Origin: an uncultured Desulfobacteraceae bacterium
Lineage (GTDB): Bacteria > Desulfobacterota > Desulfobacteria > Desulfobacterales > Desulfosalsimonadaceae
DNA length: 22,868 nt
Assembly: GCA_964451355.1 (NCBI GenBank)
Contig: CAYVIE010000034.1
Coordinates: 1-22,868, forward strand
Reading direction: 5' to 3'
A program made the position numbers and the translations under genes. Of this stretch, positions 2,533 through 22,868 are shown one piece after another (position 1 is the stretch's first letter; the number at the start of each line of letters is the position of its first letter). The notes beneath the pieces were generated by a model. That model made no database searches and was not told the origin of the DNA. It saw only the letters and a list, made by a program, of their open reading frames with translations.

Positions 2533-3078
2533 TTGATATATATTTTTGATTCATCAGATAAAAGATTACCCTCCATTAACTCAGGGTGTAGAAAAGTGGT
2601 TTTTTACAGACTCAGGCCTTTGGCCGCTTTGTTTATTATTATCTGCCTTGTTCTGCTTCAAGGCTGCTCGGGTATAAGCATTAAACAACAAGGGGAACCG
2701 TTGCCCGGATCCGCGCCCGAAGCATGGATCGCCGTGTACAGGGGGCCCCTTGACCATCTCAAGGCGTTGCGTGCCGGCCAATGCCCTATGTACCCGTCTT
2801 GCTCGGGTTACGCCAGAGAGGCTATATCAAGATACGGCCCCCTTTGGGGCTGGTTTATAACATGCGACAGGCTTATCAGGTGCGGCGGGGATACACTTGA
2901 TTTCGCCCCCAAAGTTCCAGTTAACGGAAAGTGGAAGTATTATGATCCCCTGAGCGCGAATGCTTTCTGGTTTGATGGCCAGGATGCATTCGCTGCGGGC
3001 GGCAACAGTACTGAAACTGATGCTCCGGAGGTACAATGGCTATTGAAGAAACAACATACAGGCCCAAACACCCGGTAA
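2533..3078 (+). CDS. YidD-domain (membrane protein insertion efficiency factor-like) protein with N-terminal signal/anchor and C-terminal extension
   Basis: CPMYPSCSGYAREAISRYGPLWGWFITCDRLIRCGGD matches my recollection of the YidD signature (C-x-F/Y-x-P-S/T-C-S-x-Y...R-C). A hydrophobic segment ends in LLQGCSG, a possible lipobox. The start is uncertain; an alternative GTG lies at 2596. The 3' end overlaps icmF by 43 nt. Confidence 0.6.
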   Translation: MIYIFDSSDKRLPSINSGCRKVVFYRLRPLAALFIIICLVLLQGCSGISIKQQGEPLPGSAPEAWIAVYRGPLDHLKALRAGQCPMYPSCSGYAREAISRYGPLWGWFITCDRLIRCGGDTLDFAPKVPVNGKWKYYDPLSANAFWFDGQDAFAAGGNSTETDAPEVQWLLKKQHTGPNTR

Positions 3079-6000
3079 GGGTGGTGACGGCAACAGCCCT
3101 TTTTGACGGACATGACGCATCCATAAACATAATCAGGAGGATTCTCCAGGATAGCGGCGCCGAGGTGATTCACCTGGGACACAACCGCAGTGTCGCAGAA
3201 ATTGTAAAAGCTGCCATTGAGGAAGATGTCCAGGGGGTTGCCGTATCAAGCTACCAGGGCGGGCACATGGAATTTTTCACTTACCTGCGACGGCTTCTCA
3301 ATGAAAGGGGTGGAAGCCATATCAGGATCTTTGGCGGCGGCGGTGGAGTGATCGTTCCCGACGAAATAGAGGCCTTGGAGTCATCAGGCATCACAAAGAT
3401 ATATTCCCCCGAAGACGGCGAGCGGATGGGGCTTTCCGGCATGATCAGCCACATGCTGGAGCATATGGACTTTTCCACCACGCAGGTATCACTCCCTGAC
3501 CCAGCCGGACTGTCGACCCGGCGGCCCGATATAACCGGAAGGCTTATTTCATATGCGGAACAAAAAACAACAGGTGCCCAAAACGGGACAACGGATAATC
3601 TTCTTGACAGGATCAGGGAGAAATCCAGGGAAAGGGAGATTCCTGTCATCGGAATCACAGGAACAGGTGGTGCCGGCAAGTCTTCACTGACCGATGAAAT
3701 CATCCTGAGATTCCGCTATGACGCCCCTGATTTAGCCATTGGCATAATATGCTGCGACCCGTCCAGGAAGAAGACAGGAGGCGCGCTTCTTGGCGACAGG
3801 ATCAGGATGAACGCCATTGATGCGGAAAACCTGTTTGTAAGGAGCATGGCAGTGAGGAGGGATTCCCTCGAACTGCCTGCGGCGCTGCCGGACGCGCTTT
3901 CAGTGCTAAAAGCCGCCGGCTACGACCTGGTGATCGTGGAAACCGCGGGTATCGGCCAGGGCGCGTCAAACATACTCGATCTTTCAGATATATCCATATA
4001 CGTGATGACGCCGGAGTTCGGCGCGGCCTCCCAGCTCGAGAAGATAGACATGCTGGACTTTGCCGATCTTGTGGCTGTAAACAAGTTTGACAGGGAGGGA
4101 AGCGAGGATGCTTTAAGGGAGATCGCAAAACAGGTACAAAGAAACCGCAAGGCTTTTGATACCCCTCCAGGAGACATGCCGGTCTTCGGAACAATAGCGT
4201 CCAGGTTCAATGATGACGGGGTCACAGCTCTTTATCACGGGCTATGCGACCTTCTGCACAAAAAGTGCGGGCTCCGGATAGAATCCATGCTTGCAAGAAA
4301 AGATATTCGGCATTCCACGGACAAGACAATCATAATCCCTCCCAGGAGAAAACGCTACCTTGCAGAGGTGGCGGAAACAATCCGCTCATACCACGAAGAG
4401 ACTAAAAAACAGGCCGAAAACCTCCGGGCGGCATGGCACGTAAAAGAGGCTGCTTCCGCGATATGCGGGAAAGAGATCGATAAGATTCCGGTCCCGGAGG
4501 CCATGGAGATGTTCGAAAAGGCGAAAAGGGAAGCCGAGTCCCTTGTAACACCCGAGACAAGAAGCCTGATGGAGCAATGGGAAGCGATCCGCGAGAACTA
4601 TTCGAATGATTCATACACGTACCAGGTCAGGGACAAGAAGGTCACGGTCAAGCTTTTCACCGAGTCCCTTTCCGGCACGATGATACCGAAGGTGGCACTT
4701 CCCGATTTCAAGGATCCCGGCGCCATATACACCTGGATGCGCAAGGAGAACATTCCCGGGCGTTTTCCTTTCACCGCGGGAGTATTTCCCTTCAAGCGCA
4801 CAGACGAGGATCCCACGAGGATGTTTGCTGGAGAAGGCGATCCGGCAAGAACAAACCGCCGTTTCAGGCTGCTCTCCGCGGAAAGCAGGGCAAAGCGCCT
4901 CTCAACCGCCTTTGATTCGGTCACCCTTTACGGGTGCGACCCGGACAGGCGGCCAGACATCTACGGCAAGGTGGGCACATCGGGAGTGAGCGTATGCAGC
5001 CTCGACGACATGAAGATCCTGTATTCAGGGTTCGACCTTGCATCTCCTGACACATCAGTCTCCATGACCATAAACGGTCCCGCCCCTATGATCCTTGCCA
5101 TGTTTTTGAATACCGCCATTGACCAGCAGGTTGAAAAATTCTCAAGGGAAAAAAGCAGGATGCCGGACCCTGGCGAGGCCCGGAAGATACGCGCGCATGT
5201 CCTGCAAAACATCCGTGGAACCGTGCAGGCCGATATACTAAAGGAGGACCAGGGACAGAACACCTGCATATTCTCCATAGACTTCGCCTTGAAAATGATG
5301 GCCGATATCCAGGAATTTTTCATAGAACACAACATGAAGAACTTCTATTCCATATCGGTTTCAGGCTACCACATAGCAGAAGCCGGTGCCAACCCGGTAA
5401 CACAGCTCTCCTTTACACTGGCAAACGGGTTCACCTATGTGGAGTACTACCTTGCCCGGGGTATGCACATAGACGACTTTGCCCCGAACCTCTCTTTTTT
5501 CTTCTCTTCCGGGATGGACCCGGAATACAGCGTGATCGGGCGTGTGGCCAGAAGAATCTGGGCCATAGCCATGAAAGAGAGATACCGCGCCAGTGACAGG
5601 TCGCAGATGCTCAAGTACCATATCCAGACTTCCGGGCGTTCCCTTCATGCCCAGGAAATCCAGTTCAATGACATAAGGACAACACTGCAGGCGCTCTATG
5701 CTATTTACGATAACTGCAATTCCCTGCACACCAATGCATACGATGAAGCTGTCACCACTCCCACCGAAGAATCGGTGCGCCGGTCGCTTGCCATACAGCT
5801 CATAATAAACAGGGAGCTGGGCCTTGCAAAAAACGAAAATCCGCTCCAGGGTTCATTCATAATCAGGACGCTGACCGACCTGGTTGAAGAGGCCGTCATA
5901 GCCGAATTCGACAGGATAGCAGAAAGAGGCGGTGTTTTCGCGGCAATGGAACGGGGTTACCAGAGGAGCAGGATACAGGAAGAATCCCTGTACTATGAAT

Positions 6001-6320
6001 ATCTCAAGCACACAGGCAAGCTCCCGATCATAGGGGTAAACACCTTCAAGAATCCTGCGAAGAATTCCATGCAGGAGATACGCGGCCTGGAACTTGCCCG
6101 CGCAACAAAGGAGGAAATCGAATCCCAGATCAGACGCAGGGATGAATTCATGGCAAGAAACAAGGACAAGTCTCAGGCAGCATTGGAAAGACTCAAGCAG
6201 ACAGCAATATCGGGAGGAAACATATTCGCCGAGCTCATGGGTACTGTCCGCTACTGTACTCTTGGCCAGATAACAAACGCCCTGTATGAAGTCGGCGGCA
6301 GGTACAGAAGAAACATGTGA
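3036..6320 (+). CDS. icmF: Fused isobutyryl-CoA mutase IcmF (B12-binding domain + MeaB-like G-protein chaperone + acyl-CoA mutase catalytic domain)
   Basis: 1094 aa. The N-terminus VVTATALFDGHDASINIIRRILQ carries the DxHxxG cobalamin-binding motif. The middle has a GITGTGGAGKSS P-loop with NKFD. The C-terminal roughly 530 aa is a methylmalonyl-CoA-mutase-like barrel. A GGAGG RBS lies 5 nt upstream of the ATG. Confidence 0.92.
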   Translation: MAIEETTYRPKHPVRVVTATALFDGHDASINIIRRILQDSGAEVIHLGHNRSVAEIVKAAIEEDVQGVAVSSYQGGHMEFFTYLRRLLNERGGSHIRIFGGGGGVIVPDEIEALESSGITKIYSPEDGERMGLSGMISHMLEHMDFSTTQVSLPDPAGLSTRRPDITGRLISYAEQKTTGAQNGTTDNLLDRIREKSREREIPVIGITGTGGAGKSSLTDEIILRFRYDAPDLAIGIICCDPSRKKTGGALLGDRIRMNAIDAENLFVRSMAVRRDSLELPAALPDALSVLKAAGYDLVIVETAGIGQGASNILDLSDISIYVMTPEFGAASQLEKIDMLDFADLVAVNKFDREGSEDALREIAKQVQRNRKAFDTPPGDMPVFGTIASRFNDDGVTALYHGLCDLLHKKCGLRIESMLARKDIRHSTDKTIIIPPRRKRYLAEVAETIRSYHEETKKQAENLRAAWHVKEAASAICGKEIDKIPVPEAMEMFEKAKREAESLVTPETRSLMEQWEAIRENYSNDSYTYQVRDKKVTVKLFTESLSGTMIPKVALPDFKDPGAIYTWMRKENIPGRFPFTAGVFPFKRTDEDPTRMFAGEGDPARTNRRFRLLSAESRAKRLSTAFDSVTLYGCDPDRRPDIYGKVGTSGVSVCSLDDMKILYSGFDLASPDTSVSMTINGPAPMILAMFLNTAIDQQVEKFSREKSRMPDPGEARKIRAHVLQNIRGTVQADILKEDQGQNTCIFSIDFALKMMADIQEFFIEHNMKNFYSISVSGYHIAEAGANPVTQLSFTLANGFTYVEYYLARGMHIDDFAPNLSFFFSSGMDPEYSVIGRVARRIWAIAMKERYRASDRSQMLKYHIQTSGRSLHAQEIQFNDIRTTLQALYAIYDNCNSLHTNAYDEAVTTPTEESVRRSLAIQLIINRELGLAKNENPLQGSFIIRTLTDLVEEAVIAEFDRIAERGGVFAAMERGYQRSRIQEESLYYEYLKHTGKLPIIGVNTFKNPAKNSMQEIRGLELARATKEEIESQIRRRDEFMARNKDKSQAALERLKQTAISGGNIFAELMGTVRYCTLGQITNALYEVGGRYRRNM

Positions 6321-8839: not shown

Positions 8840-10228
8840 CTATCCATTCTCCTTGCCCGGCCGCATGATGCCGTATTTTTTCATCCGCTTCCATATGGTG
8901 ACCCTGCTTACGCCCAGGCGTTTGGCAGCCTTTGTCTGATTCCATCCCACGGATTCAAGGACACCCAAAAGCTCCTCTTTTTCATCAATCCGGTTGCCGG
9001 ATACAGGAAAAGCCGTTAAAGTGGCTTTTACCCGTTTTTTATCCCTGCCCCCCAGCTTTGGGGGAAGATGCGCTGTATCTATACTTCCGCCAGGACAAAG
9101 AACAAATGCATATTCGATAACGTTTCTTAGCTCCCGGATGTTTCCCGGCCACGGGTATTCTATCAAAAGATCCATGGCGGCCGGGGTTACGCCCAGAATC
9201 TTCTTGCCGGTGTTCCTGGAGCCCTGCTTGATGAAATGCTGAACCAGAAGTGGGATATCCTCTTTACGGTCAGCCAGCCTTGGAAGAAGTAACGGGAAAA
9301 CATTTATCCTGAAATAAAGATCCTCCCGGAACTTTCCCTCGCTGACAAGCGCCTCAATGTCCCGGTTGGTCGCGGAAACAATCCTGACATCAATGGGAAT
9401 GGGGCGGTGATCGCCTACCCTTTCGATGATCTTGTCCTCCAGGACCCTCAACAGCTTGACTTGCGTGCCGGGAGGGATATCGCCTATCTCGTCTAAAAAA
9501 ATCGTCCCCTCGTTAGCCGCCTCAAACCTGCCTATTCTTGTTCGATCCGCGCCAGTGAAGGCTCCTTTAACATGGCCGAAAAGTTCACTTTCAAGCAGAT
9601 TTTCATTCAGTGCGGCGCAGTTTACCTTAATGAAAGGCTTATCCTTCCTGGGACCTGCTTCATGTATTGCTCTTGCCGCCATCTCCTTGCCGGTCCCGCT
9701 CTCTCCAAGTATCATAACAGGAGCATCGGACTGGGCGACATTGGTGATCAGCTCGAACAGCTGTTGCATCACCGGGGTTTTCCCAACAATCCCATGGAAA
9801 CCCTCATCAAGGAAATAGGATTGTCTCAACTCTTGTATCAATCTCTGCTGGCGGACAACCTGCGAGATATCCGTAAGGATCTCAACAGCCCCAATAATCT
9901 CGCCCCGACTGTTCTTCAGCACTCTCGAGGTTTTGAGTATATGCACTGTCTTACGATCTTTGGTGGTTATGAGACATCTTTTATCCTTTACATAACCTAC
10001 TGAAAACATCTTACACCACTTTTCACCTGAAGACTCCCCGAAAAATTTACAGCCTGTGCAGTTGAGAATACGACATGTTCTGCCCACGAGTTCCTCCTGG
10101 CTATAGCCAGTGAGCGCCTCGGCCGCCGGGTTTGCCGCAACGATTCTGCCAGAAGTGTTAACAACGATAAGGCCGTCGTGCAATGTATCTAAGATAGCCT
10201 TCCAGTGCTTTGAAATCTCCATAAACAA
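8840..10228 (-). CDS. Sigma-54-dependent transcriptional activator (PAS sensor + AAA+ + Fis-type HTH), no receiver domain
   Basis: Walker A GESGTGKE, the GAFTGA sigma-54 contact loop, Walker B FLDEIGD and a C-terminal HTH (AAKRLGVSRVTIWKRMKKYGI) are present. The N-terminal PAS carries a C-x4-C-x2-C-x11-C-x12-C cluster. The start is either TTG at 10228 or ATG at 10222. Confidence 0.9.
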   Translation of the reverse strand: MFMEISKHWKAILDTLHDGLIVVNTSGRIVAANPAAEALTGYSQEELVGRTCRILNCTGCKFFGESSGEKWCKMFSVGYVKDKRCLITTKDRKTVHILKTSRVLKNSRGEIIGAVEILTDISQVVRQQRLIQELRQSYFLDEGFHGIVGKTPVMQQLFELITNVAQSDAPVMILGESGTGKEMAARAIHEAGPRKDKPFIKVNCAALNENLLESELFGHVKGAFTGADRTRIGRFEAANEGTIFLDEIGDIPPGTQVKLLRVLEDKIIERVGDHRPIPIDVRIVSATNRDIEALVSEGKFREDLYFRINVFPLLLPRLADRKEDIPLLVQHFIKQGSRNTGKKILGVTPAAMDLLIEYPWPGNIRELRNVIEYAFVLCPGGSIDTAHLPPKLGGRDKKRVKATLTAFPVSGNRIDEKEELLGVLESVGWNQTKAAKRLGVSRVTIWKRMKKYGIMRPGKENG

Positions 10229-10378: not shown

Positions 10379-10405
10379 TGTTAACACTTTATGTCAAAGT
10401 TAACA
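10379..10405. promoter_or_regulatory. Inverted repeat TGTTAAC-N13-GTTAACA (candidate regulator binding site)
   Basis: The 7-bp arms are perfect and were read directly. It sits in the divergent intergenic region. No binding protein is known. Confidence 0.3.
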
Positions 10406-10475
10406 AACTGTTTACATTGTTTGCGCAAGCAAAGCAAGCCCAAGATTGCATAAACATTAAACGCACCATAATGAT

Positions 10476-10662
10476 GACGGCTCCGTAAAAAGTCCGTCTG
10501 CTGCGTTGCGCTTCGCCGGAAAGCGGCTCAACGTACTTTTAGTACGCCTCGCCTTTTCCGGCTCGCGACGCCTTGCATACAGAGCTTTTTACGAAGCCGT
10601 CGCATGAATTTTTGATAGGGTTGAATCTTTTTCTCAGTATCAAAATTTCGACTTTTTACGAG
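10476..10662. repeat. Nested imperfect palindromic repeat element (126-bp palindrome centred near 10539, plus a 61-bp tail); a dispersed repeat with a second copy at the window end
   Basis: Outer arms gacggctccgtaaaaag (10476-10492) and ctttttacgaagccgtc (10585-10601) match at 16 of 17 positions. Inner arms are gccggaaa (10515-10522) and tttccggc (10555-10562). The core is cgtac-tttta-gtacg (10532-10546). Positions 10582-10662 recur inverted at 22787-22868. Confidence 0.8.
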
Positions 10663-10687
10663 ACGGGGGAGGGCTCCCCCTCCCCCG

Positions 10688-10710
10688 CCATTTGAAATGA
10701 ATTCAAATGG
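10688..10710. promoter_or_regulatory. Perfect palindrome ccatttgaa-atgaa-ttcaaatgg; candidate upstream activator sequence for the sigma-54 activator
   Basis: The 9-bp arms were read directly. The centre lies about 98 bp upstream of the -12 element, a typical enhancer distance. Binding is not demonstrated. Confidence 0.35.
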
Positions 10711-10782
10711 TTCCACCCCCACACCCGGCCGGGGCTGAACCGGCCCAAAAATGGTAAGACGCCAGTGAATCATCGACACCGA

Positions 10783-10798
10783 TGGCATGATCTTTGCT
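10783..10798 (+). promoter_or_regulatory. Sigma-54 (-24/-12) promoter TGGCATGATCTTTGCT
   Basis: It matches the consensus TGGCAC-N5-TTGCW with one mismatch and has exact GG-N10-GC spacing. It lies 141 bp upstream of the outer-membrane protein ATG and is divergent from a sigma-54 activator gene. Confidence 0.75.
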
Positions 10799-10938: not shown

Positions 10939-12630
10939 ATGAATTTTTTAAAAAAATTTTTTCTATGGGGCTTATGCGCCCTGGTGCTTTCATGGCCCGC
11001 GGGAAAATCGATGGCAGCAGATGACATCGACGCCCTTAAGGAACAGATCCGTATTCTACAAAAAAAAGTGGAAAAACTGGAAAAGAATAACTCATGGAAC
11101 ACGGATGACATAGAGGATCTGTCAGGTAGGCTGGACAAGGCCGAGATGCATACGGCCACTGACAAGATTTCATTCGGGCTTGACTTCCGCACCAGAGCGG
11201 ACTCGATTCATTACAACGATATCCGCATAGCGCCACAGACTTTCACGGCCGCATTCTTTACTCCGTCCGCCATGGGCGGATTCAATGGCGCAACCCTGCC
11301 GGACATACAGGCCGCCATAGGGGCGATGGTGGCGGGTGGAATGGTGCCGGATGCTGAAAAATATGATGCTGATAACGACATAATATTCACCAATAAGCTT
11401 CGTCTCGAAATGTATGCAAGACTGAACTCACAGTTGAATTTCCAGGGACGCCTTGCCGCGTACAAGGTCTTCGGAGACAGCACCACTGTCAAGTTCAACC
11501 AGGGAAGCCTTGGGGATGTCACTTTCGACGGCACAACCTCGAGCCTCCCGCACGGAGACACGATCCACCTGGAACGCGCATACTTTGTCTACAAGTCCCA
11601 GATAGGCGATGTTCCTTATCATATATCTGTGGGCCGCAGGCCAGCAACAGACGGCCCCCCTCTTGAATACAGGGAATACAGCCTTGTGGGCGGTTCACCC
11701 CTTGCAACGATCATCAACTGGCAGTTCGACGGCGCATCACTGGGATTCAACCTGGAAGACGTAACCGGCATCCCGGGCGCGAGTTTCAAGCTCTGCTACG
11801 GGGTCGGCTATGAAAACGACTGGGGCAACTACACGTCTTTGGATTACGGCGGCGCTAACATAAAAGATGTCCATCTGTTCGGGTTTATAACAAAATTATA
11901 CGATGATGGTGAATCCACCAGCATAATGCTGAATTATGCACATGCATGGGATATCACCGATGGCTTCACAGGCGAGACAGTGATGCCTTTCATCGTGTCA
12001 AAACAGGATACAAACGGTGACGGCATTGACGAATATTATTTCGAGGCCAACACCGGTTCTTTTGTTTCGAGGATCGAGCCTACAGAAAATATCGGAGACT
12101 GGGACGCCGCATCACTTTTGATCCGGTCGAAAATCTCGACATCCACTGAGCCTGTTGACTGGTTCATTGCCGGATCCTGGACTCATACCAACCCATCCAA
12201 TATTTCAAAAAATCCCTTCTATGAAATTATGGGAATGGGCCTGCTCTCATCCAATGGAGAGCTGGAAGACCACGACGGCTACAGTGTTTATGCGGGCGTG
12301 ATCCTTCCCATGCCGGCATCTGGCCGTCTCGGCCTTGAATACAACTGGGGGTCCAAGTACTGGTTCAATTTCACAGGCGCAGAGGATTCACTTATCGCGA
12401 GCAAGCTCGCTGTAAGGGGTCAGGTATACGAGGCATACTATATACAGCCTGTGTTCGGCCGCAATTTTTTTGTAAAGGCGGGAACCCAGTTTTATGATTA
12501 CAAGTACACCGGAAGTGGTAATCCCCTGGGAGAACCTGTCAAGATTTCCGATGTAACGGCGCTAGACTCCATCAACCCGGTTATAGATGAAGTCTGGAAC
12601 TATTATCTTTCCGCAACCATGCGGTTCTAA
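10939..12630 (+). CDS. Outer-membrane beta-barrel protein with N-terminal coiled coil (possibly DUF3373-like)
   Basis: The signal peptide ends ...GKSMA/ADD. A heptad-like segment IDALKEQIRILQKKVEKLEKN follows. The body is aromatic- and Gly-rich with alternating residues, and the C-terminus ...YYLSATMRF ends in Phe, an OMP signature. A GGGAGG RBS is present. Confidence 0.7.
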   Translation: MNFLKKFFLWGLCALVLSWPAGKSMAADDIDALKEQIRILQKKVEKLEKNNSWNTDDIEDLSGRLDKAEMHTATDKISFGLDFRTRADSIHYNDIRIAPQTFTAAFFTPSAMGGFNGATLPDIQAAIGAMVAGGMVPDAEKYDADNDIIFTNKLRLEMYARLNSQLNFQGRLAAYKVFGDSTTVKFNQGSLGDVTFDGTTSSLPHGDTIHLERAYFVYKSQIGDVPYHISVGRRPATDGPPLEYREYSLVGGSPLATIINWQFDGASLGFNLEDVTGIPGASFKLCYGVGYENDWGNYTSLDYGGANIKDVHLFGFITKLYDDGESTSIMLNYAHAWDITDGFTGETVMPFIVSKQDTNGDGIDEYYFEANTGSFVSRIEPTENIGDWDAASLLIRSKISTSTEPVDWFIAGSWTHTNPSNISKNPFYEIMGMGLLSSNGELEDHDGYSVYAGVILPMPASGRLGLEYNWGSKYWFNFTGAEDSLIASKLAVRGQVYEAYYIQPVFGRNFFVKAGTQFYDYKYTGSGNPLGEPVKISDVTALDSINPVIDEVWNYYLSATMRF

Positions 12631-12653
12631 CACTGACCGCTGGATTATATATA

Positions 12654-12680
12654 AGGGGCAGGGATTTTTCTCCTGCCCCT
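12654..12680 (+). other. Intercistronic GC hairpin (aggggcagg / cctgcccct, 9-bp stem, 9-nt loop) between the OMP gene and yeeE
   Basis: Read directly. It starts 24 nt after the OMP stop. No T-tract follows, so it is more likely an mRNA stabiliser or partial attenuator than a full terminator. Confidence 0.5.
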
Positions 12681-12729
12681 CACTCTGACAGGGAACAAAA
12701 ATAATCATAATTAAATTGAAGAAACGATT

Positions 12730-13926
12730 ATGAAGGCATTACAAACCATAACTGAAGCCATAAAGACGGAACTGAAAAAGGCTTATGATACAGCCTTCGG
12801 GCGCACTTGGCCGGTGGTGACCGCAGGAATCCTGATCTCTGTCGTGGCTATATTCATGTTTTTATGGAACAGCCCGTGGGGTATAGCAGGAGGTTACAGA
12901 AGCTGGGGAGATTGGTTACTGTATCTTTCAGGGCTATCAGATAGCAAACCGCTATTCAAGCCATGGCAGCACCCCCTTTCAGTCTCCAACTTCGGCATCA
13001 TACTCGGTGCCTTGTCATCAGCTCTTATTGCCAGAGAATTTGCCATAAGAAAAGCACCTGCATGGGAATATGCCAAGGGAGCGGCCGGAGGAATCCTGAT
13101 GGGTATCGGGGCGGTTCTGGCTTCAGGCTGCAATGTGGGAGGTTTTTATTCGGCGATCGGGGTATTCTCGGCAGGAGGTTACGCCATGATGATCGGCCTG
13201 GGGGCTGGTGCATACCTGGGCCTGAAGTATCTTTTATGGGAAATGGAACACATTCCACAAAAAGCAATGAATGCCCCTGAGAAAAAAGGAAAATTGATGC
13301 AGGTTATGACCCGGATCGAACCATATTTCGGGGCGGTAATTATTTTTGCCGTTGTCATGGCTTTTTATGCATCGAGTTCCGATGAAAACTCGAAAACAGG
13401 GGGGCTATTGTTTTTTGGACTCCTTATCGGTCTTGTTATGCACAGAAGCAGGTTCTGCTTTGCCAGGGCTTTCCGCGAACCGCTCATGACAGGTGAATCA
13501 GACATGGTAAAGGCTGTCGCCGCAAGCCTCCTTATCTACGGTGCCGGCTCAGCCGTTATCAAGTGGAACTGGATGCAACCGCCTGAAATGGGAGTCTATC
13601 ATCCTTTCTGGGCCGGAAGCCTGTTTGGCGGACTGATATTCGGATTCGGTATGCTCCTGGCAGGAGGCTGCGCTTCGAGCACCTTGTGGCGGGCTGCTGA
13701 AGGACAGACCAAGCTCATGCTGACCCTGGCCTGCTTTGCAATAACAGACTCTGTTACACACAGGTTCATTACGGCTTATAACCTGAAAGAAAAACTCGGA
13801 ACCCCGTATTTTCTCCCCGATATTTTGGGGTGGAGTATCGCCGTGCCACTTCTTGTAGCAGTTATTTCTCTCTGGGTCATATGGGCTGACTGGAACGAGG
13901 AAACAGAACGCTTTGTGCTCTTTTAA
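12730..13926 (+). CDS. yeeE: YeeE/YedE family inner-membrane sulfur-compound (thiosulfate-type) transporter
   Basis: 398 aa polytopic protein with duplicated Gly-rich motifs bearing Cys (ASGCNVGG, AGGCASSTLW) and a third Cys in SRFCFARAF. It is immediately followed by a TusA/YeeD-type gene. Confidence 0.85.
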   Translation: MKALQTITEAIKTELKKAYDTAFGRTWPVVTAGILISVVAIFMFLWNSPWGIAGGYRSWGDWLLYLSGLSDSKPLFKPWQHPLSVSNFGIILGALSSALIAREFAIRKAPAWEYAKGAAGGILMGIGAVLASGCNVGGFYSAIGVFSAGGYAMMIGLGAGAYLGLKYLLWEMEHIPQKAMNAPEKKGKLMQVMTRIEPYFGAVIIFAVVMAFYASSSDENSKTGGLLFFGLLIGLVMHRSRFCFARAFREPLMTGESDMVKAVAASLLIYGAGSAVIKWNWMQPPEMGVYHPFWAGSLFGGLIFGFGMLLAGGCASSTLWRAAEGQTKLMLTLACFAITDSVTHRFITAYNLKEKLGTPYFLPDILGWSIAVPLLVAVISLWVIWADWNEETERFVLF

Positions 13927-13957
13927 CATAAAATTAAATTAACGAAAGGAAGAAACA

Positions 13958-14194
13958 ATGACAATCAAAGCAGATGAAACTCTTGACTTGAGAGGATTGA
14001 GCTGTCCCATGCCCATGCTCAAGACAAAAAAGAAGTTAAAGGGCATGGCAAAAGGGCAGATTCTGGAAGTATGGGGCACCGATCCTGGTTCAAAAAACGA
14101 CATACCAAACTTTGTGAAAAAATCCGGGGATGAACTCCTTGCTATGGAAGATCATCCAGACGGGTACACGCGCTACCTGATCAAGAAAGGATGA
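13958..14194 (+). CDS. tusA: TusA/SirA-family sulfur carrier protein
   Basis: 78 aa. LDLRGLSCPMPMLKTKKKL contains the CPxP active-site motif. The C-terminus YTRYLIKKG parallels my recollection of E. coli TusA (YRYLIRKGG). Confidence 0.92.
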   Translation: MTIKADETLDLRGLSCPMPMLKTKKKLKGMAKGQILEVWGTDPGSKNDIPNFVKKSGDELLAMEDHPDGYTRYLIKKG

Positions 14195-14250
14195 TGTTTT
14201 TAAACCATAGGTGACAATACATAAAAAACCATCTGCAGGGTGCAAGGATC

Positions 14251-14538
14251 ATGAAAAAAATCGCAGTTGTTATAAGAGATCCGCAACAACAGTACGAAGG
14301 CCTGAGGGTCAGTCTCGGAGCTTTACTTGACGAGGTTGAAGTGGAGATGTTCGTCCTCAATCATGAAATAGCTAATATGGACGAAGCATACAGGGACAAC
14401 ATGGAATTTCTTGATGAAATGGAGGGCAAACGTTTTTCAAACAATCCTGTAAATGTTGAAAAATATGGATTCACCTGGGCATCTGTCGGGGATATCGGTA
14501 AAAGGCTGGCCCGGGCTGATATAGTCATACCTTTCTGA
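14251..14538 (+). CDS. Small DsrE-fold protein, TusC/DsrF-like, Cys-free
   Basis: 95 aa. The N-terminus MKKIAVVI...EGLRVSLGALL and C-terminus LARADIVIPF parallel my recollection of E. coli TusC (MKRIAFVF...EGLDALLA ... LANYDVILRF). It contains no cysteine. Confidence 0.6.
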   Translation: MKKIAVVIRDPQQQYEGLRVSLGALLDEVEVEMFVLNHEIANMDEAYRDNMEFLDEMEGKRFSNNPVNVEKYGFTWASVGDIGKRLARADIVIPF

Positions 14539-14553
14539 TGAGTGAGGTGGATA

Positions 14554-14730
14554 ATGAAAGTTTTGCATCTGCTAAGATCTAAACCTGATGAGACAGTTGA
14601 GCGTCTCATAGAGGCCATGTCCGATGAGACGACTGAGACAACTGTTCTCCCACTTTTCGAAGGTGAGATCGACTGGTTGCGCCTCGTGGACGATATTTTT
14701 GCACACGACAAGGTAGTGTGCTGGTGGTGA
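14554..14730 (+). CDS. Very small TusB/DsrH-like protein
   Basis: 58 aa from the ATG at 14554, which has a GAGGTGG RBS; the ORF track uses a GTG at 14542. MKVLHLLRS... and the C-terminus IDWLRLVDDIFAHDKVVCWW parallel my recollection of E. coli TusB (MLHTLHRS ... IDYTDFVRLTVKHPSQMAW). Confidence 0.55.
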   Translation: MKVLHLLRSKPDETVERLIEAMSDETTETTVLPLFEGEIDWLRLVDDIFAHDKVVCWW

Positions 14731-14742
14731 AAGGAGATTCAA

Positions 14743-15048
14743 ATGGAAAAAACCCTGGGTATTTTAGTAGGGACAGACAAATTTCTAGACTGGGTTATCG
14801 CGGTTACCGATGCAGCTTTCCAAAAAGGTATAAAGGTTGAGATTTTTTTCACCGGCGCCGGGGTTAAGCTGACCCAGGATGCGGCCTTCGTGAATCTTGT
14901 CGGCAAGGCAAAGCTTTCAGTATGCGATGTCAGCTTCAGGGCTTATGGATTTTCCGGCGATGTTCCCGGGGTTGGTTTCAAGGACTTTGCAACGCAGGCG
15001 AGAAACGCGGAGATGATAAACAGGTGCGACAGATACCTTGTTTTCTGA
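14743..15048 (+). CDS. Small DsrE/TusD-like sulfurtransferase subunit with conserved cysteines
   Basis: 101 aa. LSVCDVSFRAYGF parallels the TusD active site LNICVAAALRRGV, and the C-terminus RCDRYLVF parallels TCDRVVQF (both E. coli sequences recalled from memory). An AAGGAG RBS is present. Confidence 0.7.
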   Translation: MEKTLGILVGTDKFLDWVIAVTDAAFQKGIKVEIFFTGAGVKLTQDAAFVNLVGKAKLSVCDVSFRAYGFSGDVPGVGFKDFATQARNAEMINRCDRYLVF

Positions 15049-15081
15049 ATACGCATTTAACCTTGATGTTACGTGAGTCCG

Positions 15082-15103
15082 GCTAATTATAGCTAATTAT
15101 AAT
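15082..15103 (+). promoter_or_regulatory. Tandem gctaattata x2 ending in a perfect TATAAT hexamer (possible internal promoter)
   Basis: Read directly in the AT-rich 142-nt gap between the dsrE-like gene and the cytochrome genes. No good -35 element lies at 17-bp spacing. Confidence 0.25.
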
Positions 15104-15190
15104 AGAATATTTCTTATGGGGATATATCATTATCCTTCATGGATTCCAGGAGAATTAAAATTGTAACAAATTGTTATGGAGGGAAACATA

Positions 15191-15520
15191 ATGAAAAAGA
15201 CATTGGTATTGCTGCTGTCTCTGACTTTAATGGTAGTTTTTGTAGGAACTGGTATCGCCTTTGATAAGAAAGGAAACGAAAAAAAAGGTAAATACTACTT
15301 CAGGAAAAACTGCAGGGTATGCCACCAGGCAGGCAAAAGCGCTCCCCCATTGAGTCCCAACAGCAAGACCCAGGCCCAGTGGGAACGCGCTTTTGAGAAG
15401 CATGAACGCCTCGAGTGCGCGGATGAATGGAAAAAACTTTCCGAAGACAAGTTAAACGATATCCTTACCTACCTGTATAACCATGCTTTCGATTCTCCAT
15501 CGCCGGCCACCTGCGGGTAA
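15191..15520 (+). CDS. Periplasmic monoheme c-type cytochrome
   Basis: Signal peptide MKKTLVLLLSLTLMVVFVGTGIAF and a single CRVCH heme motif. The ATG at 15191 follows a GGAGGG RBS; the ORF track starts at 15176. Confidence 0.8.
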   Translation: MKKTLVLLLSLTLMVVFVGTGIAFDKKGNEKKGKYYFRKNCRVCHQAGKSAPPLSPNSKTQAQWERAFEKHERLECADEWKKLSEDKLNDILTYLYNHAFDSPSPATCG

Positions 15521-15537
15521 ATAACAATAATAATATC

Positions 15538-15586
15538 ATGCATCTTTCCGAAAACAGGATCCATCATGCTTTTCGGAAAGATGCAT
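15538..15586 (+). other. Perfect 17-bp inverted repeat (atgcatctttccgaaaa / ttttcggaaagatgcat) with a 15-nt loop between the two cytochrome genes
   Basis: Read directly. It starts 18 nt after the monoheme cytochrome stop. No T-tract follows. Confidence 0.6.
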
Positions 15587-15662
15587 CCAGATGTTTAAAC
15601 TTAAACAGCAACCATAACATTGCAATATATATCGTCGATAGGGGGACAAGGAGGAAAAGCTG

Positions 15663-17285
15663 TTGGCACTAAAAAAGATCAAACCAATTGAATTGTTATG
15701 CCTTGTTATTGCCGGTTGTATTATCTTTTTGGGGTCATTTAGGTCCAGCATGGCAGAAGAAAAGACTCCTCCCGGCAAAACAATGGCAGACCAATCGCAA
15801 CTGTATGCTACAAAATGGAATACTGTGGATCACACCAAACTGGAAGCCCTGAAAGGCCCTTTTAACAGTGGCGAGGACATCACAAAAGCATGCCTGTCAT
15901 GCCACACAAAGGCCCAACACCAGTTTTTGCATGCTATCCACTGGACATGGCAATCGCCGTTCAAGAACTCAAAGGACTATGGCAAGGCCGGATATTCCAT
16001 AAATAATTTTTGTATCTCATCTAATAAAATGCATGACCAAGAATGCAACACCTGTCACATCGGGTGGGACGCGAAAAAAGATGGAATAAACTGCCTGAAA
16101 TGCCACAGCCAGGCCGATATTGATTGGTACGCCCAGCTCAAGGATTACAAGGAATTCATGGAGATGGGCGAAACAGAGCTGGCAGATGAAATCATGGCAG
16201 ATATCTTAAAAAATGTGGGCAAAATCGGCCTGCCGGAAAGACGCAATTGTGGTGAATGTCATTTCAACGGCGGCGGTGGAGAGGGTGTCAAGCATGGTGA
16301 TCTCGATGCATCCCTTATCAACCCAAAAAGAACATTGGATGTTCATATGGGGGTTGACGGCCAGAATTTCAGATGCACCCGCTGCCATACCACGGTTGAG
16401 CACATGATTGCAGGCCGTGTATATTCAACGCCCGCCACGAAAAAGCACCTGAGCCTGGTTCAAAACGATCTGGCCCCCAAGATAACATGCGAGGCTTGTC
16501 ATACGGCAACCCCGCACAACGACGTTAAACTAAACGATCATACCGACAAGGTTGCGTGCCAGAGCTGTCACATACCGACATTCGCCCGCGCACATGCGAC
16601 CCAGATGTGGTGGGACTGGTCCACAGCCGGAAAAACCAGGGATGGAAAGAAATACCAGGAAAAGGGAGCTTTCGGCAGGCCTGTCTACAAATCAATCAAG
16701 GGTGACTTCAGGTGGGAAAAGAATGTCGTGCCCGAGTATTTCTGGTATAATGGCTCTATAGAGTCGATAACCGCAAAGGAAATCATCGACCCATCCAGGC
16801 AGCCTATCTGGATCAGCCGCCCCGTAGGAAGCCGTGATGACCCAGAGTCCCGGATCTATCCATTCAAGATTCATTACGCAAAACAGCCCTATGACATGGA
16901 GAATAATATATTTGTCACACCGCTTCTTTCCGAGGAAAACAACGGCTTCTGGGAAACACTCGACTGGCAGGATTCTGTTTCCAGGGGCATGGAAATCATG
17001 GGGCTTCCCTACTCTGGCAAGATAGGATTCGTGGAAACCAACTATGTATTTCCCATCACGCACATGGTCGCACCCAAGGAAGACGCTCTGTCTTGCAATG
17101 CATGCCACTCAAGAGAGCATGGCAGGCTTTCGAAGCTGACAGGCTTTTATATGCCTCGCAGGGACCGCTTTCTTTTTCTGGACAGAGCTGGATGGGGGCT
17201 TGCAGCCGGAGCGCTTCTTGTTGTGCTCCTGCACGCCTTGGGAAGGATCTTTTCCTCGGCCATGAGGAAAAGCAAGGAGGATTGA
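15663..17285 (+). CDS. Octaheme c-type cytochrome, tetrathionate reductase (Otr) family-like, with N-terminal signal/anchor and C-terminal TM helix
   Basis: Eight CxxCH motifs at C77, C128, C144, C196, C238, C276, C299 and C478. The N-terminal DHTKLEAL...ITKACLSCHT...HWTW resembles my recollection of Shewanella Otr. There is no CxxCK or long-spacer heme motif. The TTG start follows an AAGGAGGA RBS. The C-terminal hydrophobic helix is GWGLAAGALLVVLLHALGRIF. Confidence 0.8.
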   Translation: MALKKIKPIELLCLVIAGCIIFLGSFRSSMAEEKTPPGKTMADQSQLYATKWNTVDHTKLEALKGPFNSGEDITKACLSCHTKAQHQFLHAIHWTWQSPFKNSKDYGKAGYSINNFCISSNKMHDQECNTCHIGWDAKKDGINCLKCHSQADIDWYAQLKDYKEFMEMGETELADEIMADILKNVGKIGLPERRNCGECHFNGGGGEGVKHGDLDASLINPKRTLDVHMGVDGQNFRCTRCHTTVEHMIAGRVYSTPATKKHLSLVQNDLAPKITCEACHTATPHNDVKLNDHTDKVACQSCHIPTFARAHATQMWWDWSTAGKTRDGKKYQEKGAFGRPVYKSIKGDFRWEKNVVPEYFWYNGSIESITAKEIIDPSRQPIWISRPVGSRDDPESRIYPFKIHYAKQPYDMENNIFVTPLLSEENNGFWETLDWQDSVSRGMEIMGLPYSGKIGFVETNYVFPITHMVAPKEDALSCNACHSREHGRLSKLTGFYMPRRDRFLFLDRAGWGLAAGALLVVLLHALGRIFSSAMRKSKED

Positions 17286-17287
17286 TC

Positions 17288-17950
17288 ATGGCAGAAAACA
17301 ACAACACTAAACTGATATATCTATATACACGTTACGAGCGCCTGTGGCACTGGCTTCAGATGGTTCTGATAGCCGTGTTGATGCTCACCGGCCTTGAAAT
17401 ACACGGTGTATTCGAATTTTTCGGATACCAAAAAGCTGTCAGTCTACATAATACAGTGGGAATTACATGGCTAATCGCCTTTTTCTTCTTTGTATTCTGG
17501 CTTTTTACCACCGGGGAATGGAAGCAGTATATCCCGACCACGAAAAGGCTCTTTTCCATGATCCGATATTATTCCTACGGAATATTCCGCGGTGAACCGC
17601 ATCCGTTTCCGAAGCGGAAAGAAGCGAAGCACAATCCGCTGCAAAGGCTTACGTATCTTGCCGTGGCCGCAGCGCTTCTCCCCTTGCAGATGATAACCGG
17701 CTTCTTGTACTGGGGATACAACAGCTGGGATGCGTGGGGAATAAAATCACTAACACTGGGCATGGTAGCTTTTGCCCATACCGCGCTTGCTTTTGCCATT
17801 CTGGTCTTTGTTATCATCCATGTCTACATGACAACAACTGGACACACTGTGTTCGCCCATATCAAATCCATGATCACCGGATACGAGGAGGTCGAGGCAA
17901 GCCATTATGCCCAGGAAATCTCCATCGTGAAACCCGAAGAATCACGTTGA
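17288..17950 (+). CDS. Membrane di-heme cytochrome b (Ni/Fe-hydrogenase/PhsC/FdnI-type quinol-interacting subunit)
   Basis: 220 aa from the ATG at 17288, which has an AAGGAGGA RBS and lies 2 nt after the octaheme stop. It has multiple TM helices with His residues in them (RLWHWLQ, LEIHG, SLHNTVG, FAHTALAFAILVFVIIHVYM). The ORF-track start at 17093 overlaps the upstream gene. Confidence 0.85.
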   Translation: MAENNNTKLIYLYTRYERLWHWLQMVLIAVLMLTGLEIHGVFEFFGYQKAVSLHNTVGITWLIAFFFFVFWLFTTGEWKQYIPTTKRLFSMIRYYSYGIFRGEPHPFPKRKEAKHNPLQRLTYLAVAAALLPLQMITGFLYWGYNSWDAWGIKSLTLGMVAFAHTALAFAILVFVIIHVYMTTTGHTVFAHIKSMITGYEEVEASHYAQEISIVKPEESR

Positions 17951-17978
17951 ATCTGATTAAAACCGGCTCTCCCCCCTG

Positions 17979-18026
17979 CGGGGGATTCCACTTCTGCATT
18001 ACAAAACGGAATCCCCCGTTTTTTTT
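17979..18026 (+). terminator. Rho-independent terminator closing the sulfur/cytochrome cluster
   Basis: An 11-bp stem cgggggattcc / ggaatcccccg with an 18-nt loop is followed by T8. It sits between convergent genes. Confidence 0.8.
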
Positions 18027-18036
18027 ATCACCGGAC

Positions 18037-22786: not shown

Positions 22787-22868
22787 ACTCGTAAAAAATC
22801 GAAATTTTGATACTAAGAAAAAGATTCAACCCTATCAAAAATTCATGCGACGGCTTCGTAAAAAGCTC
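22787..22868. repeat. Second, inverted partial copy of the 10476-10662 repeat element, truncated by the window end
   Basis: The reverse complement of 22787-22868 aligns to 10582-10662 with 2 substitutions and one 1-nt homopolymer indel (82 versus 81 nt). Confidence 0.85.

Follow-up and report, generated by a model that had tools for sequence, protein, structure and literature searches.

In the genome of an uncultured Desulfobacteraceae bacterium, a nine-gene locus joins an outer-membrane pore, a sulfur permease with its TusA-like partner, three small proteins assigned to the DsrEFH type II complex, a small cytochrome with a cysteine-bearing tail, and an octaheme cytochrome c of the Otr family with its cytochrome b. 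The locus occupies positions 10939-17950 of contig CAYVIE010000034.1, whose 22,868 nucleotides are hereafter called the window. From the sequence and its conservation, we propose that it is a modular, sigma-54-controlled operon for the dissimilation of an inorganic sulfur compound with an S-S bond, and we put the probability of this reading at about one half; tetrathionate and polysulfide are the leading candidate substrates. The proposal is favored by the conservation of the layout in relatives, the interchange of the octaheme unit with a Phs-like enzyme, gene neighbors that belong to sulfur and not to nitrogen metabolism, a cysteine or selenocysteine beside the catalytic heme, and a promoter and upstream site that recur in orthologous loci.

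Layout of the locus and its variants in relatives

The nine open reading frames (ORFs) lie on the + strand and are separated by gaps of 99, 31, 56, 15, 12, 142, 142 and 2 nt. An earlier annotation made from the sequence alone (the original prediction) had described nine co-directional genes with this spacing. The ORF coordinates give identical gaps, and the families it had assigned, apart from the DsrE fold of two small proteins, were recovered by profile searches of all nine products against Pfam and NCBIfam. The starts at 14554 and 15191 match the N-termini of orthologues. The genes and signals of the locus are as follows:

8840-10228, - strand: activator with PAS, sigma-54 AAA+ and HTH_8 domains, divergent from the operon
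10379-10416, no strand assigned: candidate activator-binding site (upstream activating sequence, UAS), three GTTAAC-type repeats
10783-10798, + strand: sigma-54 -24/-12 promoter, TGGCATGATCTTTGCT
10939-12630, + strand: DUF3373 outer-membrane beta-barrel, putative porin (PF11853)
12654-12680, + strand: G+C-rich hairpin 3' of the pore gene, without a U-run (called from folding energy)
12730-13926, + strand: YedE/YeeE-family inner-membrane sulfur permease (PF04143)
13958-14194, + strand: TusA/YeeD-type sulfur carrier (PF01206)
14251-14538, + strand: 95-aa protein, DsrF-like subunit of DsrEFH type II by synteny
14554-14730, + strand: 58-aa protein, DsrH-like subunit of DsrEFH type II by synteny
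14743-15048, + strand: 101-aa DsrE type II subunit (PF02635), invariant Cys61
15191-15520, + strand: small periplasmic class-I cytochrome-c-like protein, one CxxCH, Cys tail
15539-15585, + strand: 17-bp perfect-stem hairpin, no clear U-run, 3' of the small cytochrome gene
15663-17285, + strand: Otr-family octaheme cytochrome c (TIGR04315), TTG start with GGAGG 8 nt upstream
17288-17950, + strand: cytochrome b with four transmembrane segments, PhsC-like (PF01292)
17978-18027, + strand: intrinsic terminator, 12-bp stem followed by U8

The genes at 12730-15048 form, as had been recognized from the outset, a YTD cluster, that is, syntenic yedE-related, tusA and dsrE-like genes with two small conserved genes.

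Conservation was scored with ten window proteins in 160 Otr-centered loci (80 from species-representative genomes and 80 from metagenomes) and, in the same way, in 15 added loci centered on close homologues of the 101-aa protein; individual loci are cited by L numbers. Clusters of antisense ORFs (2, 3, 21 and 24) and fragments of Otr interrupted at selenocysteine (cluster 7) were discarded from the clustering of neighbors. The cytochrome b gene adjoins that of Otr in 78 of the 80 genome loci. Among Desulfobacterota, a PAS/sigma-54 activator gene is divergent to the Otr-cytochrome b pair in L006, L010-L012, L016-L017 and L094, and in one clade, in which Otr is at least 60% identical, the DUF3373 and small cytochrome genes stand between activator and Otr. 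The arrangements are distributed as follows:

Full nine genes: the window; L005 (Otr 63% identical); L171-L176 (one lineage, 16 contigs)
YTD, cytochrome c, Otr and cytochrome b, contig cut upstream: L088 (Otr 53% identical)
DsrEFH type II, cytochrome c and Otr-cytochrome b, without YeeE-TusA: L004/L007, L008, L167/L168
Outer-membrane protein, cytochrome c and Otr, no relay: L002, L090
PhsA-like molybdoenzyme (524 bits to the PhsA model) with 4Fe-4S, NrfD and TorD-like proteins, between small cytochrome and Otr: L004
The same type of PhsA-like enzyme in place of Otr-cytochrome b: L169
DsrEFH type II alone: L177-L180
YeeE-TusA, DsrEFH type II and small cytochrome only, no reductase: L181

The five YTD genes are found together in L005, L088, L169, L170, L171-L176 and L181. 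In eight of the ten lineages with this DsrE subfamily, a small and non-random sample, the genes are linked to a periplasmic quinol-dependent reductase, a pore and an activator. Conservation of the gene neighborhood, the check proposed in the original prediction, was thus found: the nine-gene layout recurs with its activator in L005 and L171-L176, and L088 is cut upstream. The unit is nevertheless modular rather than fixed, since the relay varies and a Phs-like enzyme may be added or substituted. Judged from gene content, the activator and the Otr-cytochrome b pair are a widespread core, YeeE-TusA and DsrEFH type II are variable inserts, and the pore and small cytochrome are an addition of one Desulfobacterales clade.

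Beyond these arrangements, the cultured species Desulfobacula phenolica and Desulfoluna spongiiphila have related Otr loci without the pore/YTD operon. 5' of Otr, D. phenolica carries genes for a triple-rhodanese protein and for a small-cytochrome homologue that has no heme, and by the activator it carries a DsrE gene. In proteobacteria, the neighbors of Otr-cytochrome b include DUF302 proteins (19 loci), redoxins (21), rhodaneses (9 + 6), DsbD-like proteins and cytochrome bd. No nitrogen-cycle gene was found near any of the 160 Otr loci.

Reductase, small cytochrome, pore and sulfur relay

With a signal sequence at its N-terminus and eight CxxCH motifs, the octaheme protein scores 511 bits against TIGR04315 (cut-off 375). 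Its only PDB relative at E <= 0.01 is the Otr of Shewanella (1SP3, E 8e-95), of which Lys56, the ligand of the catalytic heme, and Cys64 have their equivalents in Lys108 and Cys117; both residues are kept, and the Otr-like identity first proposed is confirmed by these matches. Grouping with nitrite or hydroxylamine enzymes, named beforehand as evidence to the contrary, was not seen. Assignment as a nitrogen enzyme of the ONR, HAO or NrfA type was rejected, as no such PDB match was found at E <= 0.01 and nitrogen-cycle neighbors were absent. A C-terminal transmembrane helix (residues 503-521), which the first reading had missed, is common to most relatives.

The gene for cytochrome b begins 2 nt after the Otr stop codon, and we regard the two genes as translationally coupled. 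The cytochrome b has four transmembrane segments and belongs to PF01292 (Ni_hydr_CYTB, E 7e-30, 105 against 30 bits); the best NCBIfam match is the thiosulfate reductase subunit PhsC (NF011582), at 121 bits under a cut-off of 204, and the protein is best described as a PhsC-like family member on the strength of these profiles. The C-terminal helix of the octaheme protein and the 2-nt spacing point to a membrane-bound complex that would oxidize quinol. An Otr gene beside a cytochrome b gene has been noted earlier in Thermosulfurimonas dismutans (PMC4911364). What Otr reduces physiologically is considered unsettled (PMC10949509), and otr transcripts increased after addition of tetrathionate to sediment microcosms (PMC8528874). 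The exchange of the Otr unit for a Phs/Psr-like reductase in relatives provides an argument from gene context that these Otr enzymes act on sulfur compounds.

The position of Cys117 (window ~16011-16013) is occupied by Cys in 153 of 174 relatives and by an in-frame stop codon in 17. The stop is TGA in the inspected cases, as it is in three further loci misaligned by tblastn, which brings the TGA relatives to about 20 (L015-L032, L091, L095, L097, L098 and L100; Desulfohalobiaceae, Desulfonatronovibrio, Thermodesulfatator and others). This codon presumably encodes selenocysteine, and selenocysteine forms of the Otr family are already listed in a review of selenoproteomes (PMC13188914). A cysteine or selenocysteine beside the catalytic heme would fit nucleophilic attack on an S-S bond, a chemistry for which a pentaheme selenoenzyme of Geobacter that reduces polysulfide provides a precedent (PMC13510729).

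The small cytochrome matches a Cytochrome_CBB3-type monoheme profile (E 5e-7), with one CxxCH motif and no Met in the mature part. The earlier label of monoheme cytochrome holds in these respects but misses the conserved C-terminal Cys tail: Cys76 and the penultimate Cys108, in a tail that reads ...DSPSPATCG, are common to 12 orthologues. In the orthologues of L006 and L088, the CxxCH motif has lost its first Cys and its His, while the second Cys, Cys76 and the tail are kept, indicating that the conserved feature is the Cys tail rather than the heme. The wider family was sampled through 131 short representatives: a Cys falls within the final four residues of 93, and CxxCH is missing from 41; typical tails are ...DSPxPAKCK and ...DSDQPETCG, with the hallmark ...DS(P/D)xPxxC-x. 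Members of the family are encoded at the following sites:

Window, 15191-15520
L006, 9484-9834
L088, 2678-3019
L042, 8396-8797, - strand
L081, 13543-13944, - strand

In the last two loci, from Rhodocyclaceae, an operon for a Cys-tail cytochrome, a YeeE-like permease and a multi-rhodanese protein converges on Otr-cytochrome b, so that Otr, cytochrome b, Cys-tail cytochrome and YeeE have been assembled into a quartet at least twice.

SoxY carries a Cys on a swinging C-terminal arm, and by analogy the small cytochrome may be a periplasmic sulfur carrier. The analogy can be extended: the tail-Cys proteins could be an unrecognized family of carriers between Otr or Phs and YeeE, and the operon a self-contained disproportionation unit. 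We advance this tentatively and consider it doubtful. In such a unit, the flexible tail Cys would take up sulfane or thiosulfonate sulfur at the active site of Otr (or Phs) and deliver it to YeeE, from where it would pass through TusA and DsrEFH type II to DsrC. One part of the S-S compound would be reduced in the periplasm with quinol, and the other would be imported and oxidized, regenerating quinol.

The pore protein matches PF11853 (DUF3373) with an E value of 5e-126; it starts with a signal peptide, is predicted to have an N-terminal helix and ends in Phe. AlphaFold2 models it as a barrel of ~18-20 strands, with moderate confidence (predicted local distance difference test score, pLDDT, of 70; predicted TM-score, pTM, of 0.71). 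Foldseek comparison of this model with the PDB gave 214 matches at E <= 1e-3, the best being AlgE, OprB, OmpM1 and OmpF. Pfam membership and the predicted outer-membrane beta-barrel fold place the protein in DUF3373/TCDB 1.B.62, in agreement with the outer-membrane barrel originally proposed. DUF3373 is catalogued as a putative family of 18-strand porins (PMC4827864), and a member was abundant in Dissulfuribacter thermophilus during thiosulfate disproportionation; the same proteomic study states that the route of thiosulfate across the outer membrane is still to be found (PMC13490349). The pore is a candidate for such a route for sulfur anions.

The permease, with ~8-9 transmembrane segments, matches PF04143 (Sulf_transp, E 3e-52). 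It has both the Sulf_transp fold and the three essential Cys of YeeE/TsuA proteins, as Cys134, Cys243 and Cys314 (motifs GCNxG, RxCF and GGCAS) correspond to those of S. thermophila YeeE. Its halves are swapped relative to the solved structure (6LEO, E 2e-18): residues 227-333 align with 6-110 of the chain and residues 27-150 with 192-309. The permease aligns colinearly with NF033796 (YedE/FdhT), at 130 bits under a cut-off of 350. Classification as a TsuA/YeeE equivalog was rejected on partial alignments that scored far under the cut-offs (NF052577, 111 against 400 bits; NF041049, 77 against 645). The neighboring TusA protein (PF01206, E 3.5e-26) has Cys16 in a C-P-x-P motif, and its PDB relatives are TusA (3LVJ) and YeeD (8K1R).

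Of the three small proteins, the 101-aa protein is a member of the DsrE family (PF02635, E 4e-5, 24.2 bits against a cut-off of 22.7). Its Cys61, in the motif SVCDVSFR, is invariant in 35 homologues, and its AlphaFold2 model (pLDDT 94) has the DsrE/DsrF-like structures 2QS7 and 3PNX as best PDB matches (TM-score 0.72). A DsrE fold with a conserved transfer Cys, Cys67 in Electronema, defines the DsrE type II subunit, and the 101-aa protein has both. The 95-aa protein reaches PF02635 under the cut-off (E 0.022); the 58-aa protein, which ends in CWW and is conserved in 10 lineages, has no match among Pfam and NCBIfam families. In those 10 lineages, the 95-aa gene always adjoins the 58-aa and 101-aa genes. 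Profile searches of the PDB with the three proteins returned no relative, and hhalign detected no mutual similarity among them. The prediction of three DsrE-fold proteins is thus upheld for the 101-aa protein by Pfam and AlphaFold2, and the profile and hhalign searches were negative for the other two; we assign these as DsrF-like (95-aa) and DsrH-like (58-aa) subunits from synteny and from published models of the corresponding proteins.

The statement in the original prediction that the function of YTD is unresolved has been overtaken. Its DsrE-like protein and two hypothetical proteins have since been shown to be DsrEFH type II, a sulfur transferase with DsrC as its acceptor in vitro, although assembly into a heterotrimer or hexamer and transfer to DsrC were demonstrated with the Electronema proteins only (PMC13293266). 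DsrEFH type II is present in 985 genomes, usually in synteny with tusA and yeeE (PMC13293266; also PMC13047784), and its role is argued, between sulfur oxidation through a reversed Dsr pathway and disproportionation. Uptake of thiosulfate by YeeE requires a TusA-like partner, according to work cited in PMC13047784.

Activator, promoter and RNA signals

The divergently encoded activator contains Sigma54_activat (Pfam, E 4e-72), PAS_9 and HTH_8 domains, with GAFTGA at residue 222, and its orthologues (51-69% identity) are encoded divergently to Otr loci in Desulfobacterota. Five Cys in its PAS domain, spaced C-x4-C-x2-C-x12-C-x11-C over residues 52-98, are kept across 12 orthologues. No solved PAS domain with this pattern was found, and the nearest in the PDB, of the FixL and LOV types, do not have it; the spacing suggests that the domain is a thiol/persulfide switch or binds an Fe-S cluster. 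Nothing relevant emerged when the literature was searched for a regulator of the sigma-54/PAS kind that acts on tetrathionate genes of Desulfobacterota.

The promoter TGGCATGATCTTTGCT, 140 nt before the first ATG, is the sole match in the window with at most one mismatch to TGGCAC-N5-TTGCW. Since matches with two mismatches are no more frequent in the window than expected by chance, the call relies on position and on conservation in orthologues: -24/-12 elements also lie 5' of the orthologous operons in L004, L005, L006, L008, L010, L011, L012, L167 and L169. On both counts, the near-consensus promoter of the original prediction stands. Upstream, at 10379-10416, are the repeats TGTTAACA, AGTTAACA and TGTTTACA, with an extra copy of TGTTAACA at 10156-10163. 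GTTAAC-type repeats are likewise clustered in the intergenic region between activator and operon in each orthologous locus with the promoter; four of the seven sites in L005 (21.6 kb) lie within 60 nt, and four of the five in L012 are in the intergenic region. We consider the cluster a candidate activator-binding site. With GAFTGA, a helix-turn-helix domain, a GG-N10-GC promoter and upstream sites at which it is predicted to bind, the activator has the features of a sigma-54 enhancer-binding protein.

The distance from UAS to promoter is ~370 nt in the window, compared with ~80-170 nt in relatives, and a repeat-like element of ~300 nt (10440-10740) lies between the two. Of this element, 81 nt (10582-10662) recur inverted at 22788-22868 with 97.5% identity. 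It contains an internal inverted repeat (10476-10601), shares 39 nt with L002 and possibly represents a small Desulfobacterales repeat of dispersed or mobile type. An Rfam search of the window gave no match, the element included, and thus no riboswitch or known RNA accounts for the long gaps or the upstream repeat.

The strong terminator that had been predicted downstream is evident at 17978-18019 as a G+C stem of 12 bp with U8 behind it (-29.2 kcal/mol, z -4.8). The hairpin region 3' of the pore gene (-24 kcal/mol, z -3.2) is possibly a partial terminator or a stabilizer of the mRNA, and that 3' of the small cytochrome gene reaches -34.4 kcal/mol (z -3.6); the two internal hairpins, which have no U-run, could modulate expression within the operon. 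In a scan for sigma-70 and terminator consensus sequences, counts were at the level of chance and no convincing internal promoter was found. In relatives, no more than 42-56 nt separate the cytochrome genes from their neighbors, which favors co-transcription as the probable ancestral state.

Proposed mechanism, alternatives and known systems

These elements can be arranged into a pathway. The Cys-rich PAS domain would sense a sulfur or redox cue, upon which the activator would turn on the operon, and an anionic substrate would enter through the DUF3373 pore. The Otr-cytochrome b complex would then use menaquinol electrons for reductive cleavage of the S-S bond at the Lys-ligated heme, helped by the invariant Cys (selenocysteine in some relatives), and in some relatives a Phs-like enzyme would serve as the reductase. 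Thiosulfate or sulfane sulfur would reach YeeE, perhaps carried by the C-terminal Cys of the small cytochrome, cross the inner membrane, and pass from TusA to DsrEFH type II and on to DsrC. From DsrC it could be reduced by DsrAB, or oxidized in the oxidative branch of a disproportionation that sends electrons back to the quinone pool. The model proposed for Desulfurivibrio dismutans has the menaquinone pool fed by Dsr and drained by a periplasmic Psr (PMC12142623). An operon that would hold both a quinol-consuming periplasmic reductase and a feeder of the Dsr pathway matches this disproportionation logic.

Several observations weigh against this pathway. The activity, the substrate and the direction of the reaction are all inferred, as are the hand-over of sulfur and expression from a single transcript, from a gene content, conservation, regulatory signals and active-site residues that we observe directly. 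The last steps presuppose dsrC and dsrAB in the host genome, of which 22.9 kb was analyzed. The Otr of Shewanella also reduces nitrite and hydroxylamine in vitro (PMC10949509). The modules also occur apart (L002, L090, L181 and L177-L180), so the coupling is facultative. The two 142-nt gaps with strong hairpins mean that the cytochrome genes could be expressed separately or at other levels, and the repeat-like element intervenes between UAS and promoter. As for thiosulfate, it did not persulfidate recombinant TusA, DsrEFH type II or DsrC of a cable bacterium in vitro (PMC13293266), which makes sulfane sulfur from the cleavage of polysulfide or tetrathionate the likelier cargo.

Independent systems that share a neighborhood and a regulator, with no flow of substrate or product between Otr-cytochrome b and the relay, would produce the same gene order. 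Otr-cytochrome b would then be a stand-alone respiratory or detoxifying reductase, and YeeE-TusA-DsrEFH type II would traffic sulfur separately. We think this unlikely, if the most credible of the alternatives. Modules found alone (the activator with Otr-cytochrome b in L010-L012, L016-L017 and L094; no relay in L002 and L090; no reductase in L177-L181) and the long hairpin-bearing gaps around the cytochrome genes agree with it. However, the relay sits inside the Otr operon, between pore and small cytochrome, and persists there down to 53% Otr identity; YeeE and rhodanese are associated separately with Otr-cytochrome b in Betaproteobacteria; and substitution by a Phs-like sulfur reductase leaves the remaining operon intact. 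An oxidative role seems improbable to us. In that case the relay would feed a reversed Dsr pathway, and Otr-cytochrome b would be an outlet to nitrite or hydroxylamine, both of which Otr reduces in vitro (PMC10949509), or a periplasmic thiosulfate oxidase running in reverse. The discoverers of DsrEFH type II read the complex as a marker of sulfur-oxidation capacity (PMC13293266), and Thermosulfurimonas dismutans, with Otr-cytochrome b and no obvious NrfA, ammonifies nitrate with S0 (PMC4911364). Yet rhodanese, YeeE, DsrE and Phs-like genes, and no nitrogen-cycle gene, recur around the 160 Otr loci, Otr is interchangeable with a PhsA-like enzyme, and the Cys or selenocysteine by the catalytic heme fits S-S chemistry; moreover, conversion of thiosulfate to tetrathionate with menaquinone as acceptor is thermodynamically unfavorable, as argued in PMC9751629.

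A role in selenium handling, which we judge very improbable, would have the YedE/YedF-like pair import or traffic selenium and the multiheme enzyme reduce selenite or another selenium oxyanion. The YedE/FdhT "selenium metabolism" model indeed aligns colinearly with the permease, and YedF models match the TusA protein; some Otr relatives are selenoproteins (PMC13188914), and Geobacter MccSep, whose system includes a porin and a rhodanese, also reduces selenite (PMC13510729). But the selenium-specific models NF033796, TIGR04112 and NF008242 gave 130, 56 and 50 bits against cut-offs of 350, 200 and 79, on which grounds a selenium YedE/YedF assignment was rejected. In addition, the relay is of the DsrC-directed DsrEFH type II, the variable partners are a Phs-like enzyme, rhodaneses and TauE, and no selD, selA or selB context is present within the window.

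Among known regulators, sulfide- or sulfane-responsive sigma-54 activators such as FisR, which have regulatory Cys and control sulfur-metabolism genes, would be comparable; the sensor here is a PAS domain with the Cys pattern given above. Among sulfur-respiring systems, Wolinella Psr/Sud pairs a polysulfide reductase with a periplasmic sulfur carrier. PsrABC/PhsABC and the Desulfurivibrio dismutans model (PMC12142623) share with the proposed pathway a periplasmic quinol-dependent S-S reductase, sulfur transferases and cytoplasmic Dsr, whereas catalysis is here predicted for a multiheme cytochrome anchored by cytochrome b and not for a molybdoenzyme with NrfD. The Geobacter MccSep/ExtHIJKL-type system (PMC13510729) resembles the proposed pathway in its periplasmic multiheme enzyme, Cys/selenocysteine nucleophile, polysulfide reduction, and porin and rhodanese in the same physiology. 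MccSep, however, is a pentaheme protein with a Cys-ligated heme, in contrast to the octaheme protein with a Lys-ligated heme here, and no YeeE/TusA/DsrEFH relay is reported there.

The other likenesses concern parts of the operon. The YTD/DsrEFH type II cluster (Umezawa et al. 2020; Plum-Jensen et al. 2026, PMC13293266; PMC13047784) has the same five genes, the Cys of the DsrE-like protein, the CPxP Cys of TusA and a Desulfobacterota host, but here the five genes are embedded in a sigma-54 operon with the DsrE-like gene last of the three small genes, and in relatives yeeE-tusA can be missing from the operon while the three small genes are present. With Shewanella oneidensis Otr (1SP3), the octaheme protein has in common TIGR04315 membership, eight hemes and the equivalents of Lys56 and Cys64; it differs in its C-terminal membrane anchor, the solved chain being unaligned past query residue 484. 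The Thermosulfurimonas dismutans pair (PMC4911364) also has the adjacent cytochrome b, a near-universal partner of Otr. Unlike either, Otr here is encoded in one predicted operon with a pore, an importer and a relay, and has a dedicated PAS/sigma-54 activator. YeeE/YeeD (TsuA/TsuB; 6LEO and 8K1R) has a Sulf_transp permease with three essential Cys and a TusA-family partner encoded next to it, in a permease whose halves are swapped relative to the YedE/FdhT-colinear protein of the window, which scores under the TsuA cut-offs.

Every component family is thus already known, and the core relay is known under the newer name DsrEFH type II. In the literature searched, YTD/DsrEFH type II was not linked with Otr, octaheme cytochromes, DUF3373 or a divergent PAS/sigma-54 activator, as the original prediction had supposed. 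The conserved modular fusion of the relay with Otr-cytochrome b or a Phs-like enzyme, a DUF3373 pore, a Cys-tail cytochrome and a PAS/sigma-54 regulon appears undescribed. Two open questions meet in it: the substrate of Otr (tetrathionate versus nitrite or hydroxylamine), and the role of YTD/DsrEFH type II with the source of its sulfur. For the latter, gene context argues for the periplasm as the place where the sulfur passed to the relay is generated or captured. The locus offers experimentalists a defined regulon with an inducer to seek, and a C-terminal-Cys family as a candidate periplasmic carrier.

The other genes of the window are unrelated to the operon and encode ZnuABC, an IcmF-like fused mutase, a thiolase and a DAHP synthase/prephenate dehydratase. 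The mutase (3036-6320) is a 1094-aa fusion of B12-binding, MeaB GTPase and methylmalonyl-CoA-mutase-type domains with the thiolase next to it, and the DAHP synthase gene is convergent, beyond the operon terminator. Relatives carry further genes downstream, absent from the window: an FmdE-domain gene, often with MoCF_biosynth fused or next to it, 3' of the operon in four lineages, and a TauE/SafE gene (sulfite-exporter family) just downstream in two (L169 and L171-L176). Their coordinates are:

L004, 12782-14424
L005, 12435-14066
L167, 12244-13056
L169, 14873-16507 and 18056-18306
L171, 14387-15310

In L171-L174 (~12218-13570 in L171), a second sigma-54 activator gene, of the response-regulator type, follows cytochrome b, with Usp and TauE genes next in line.

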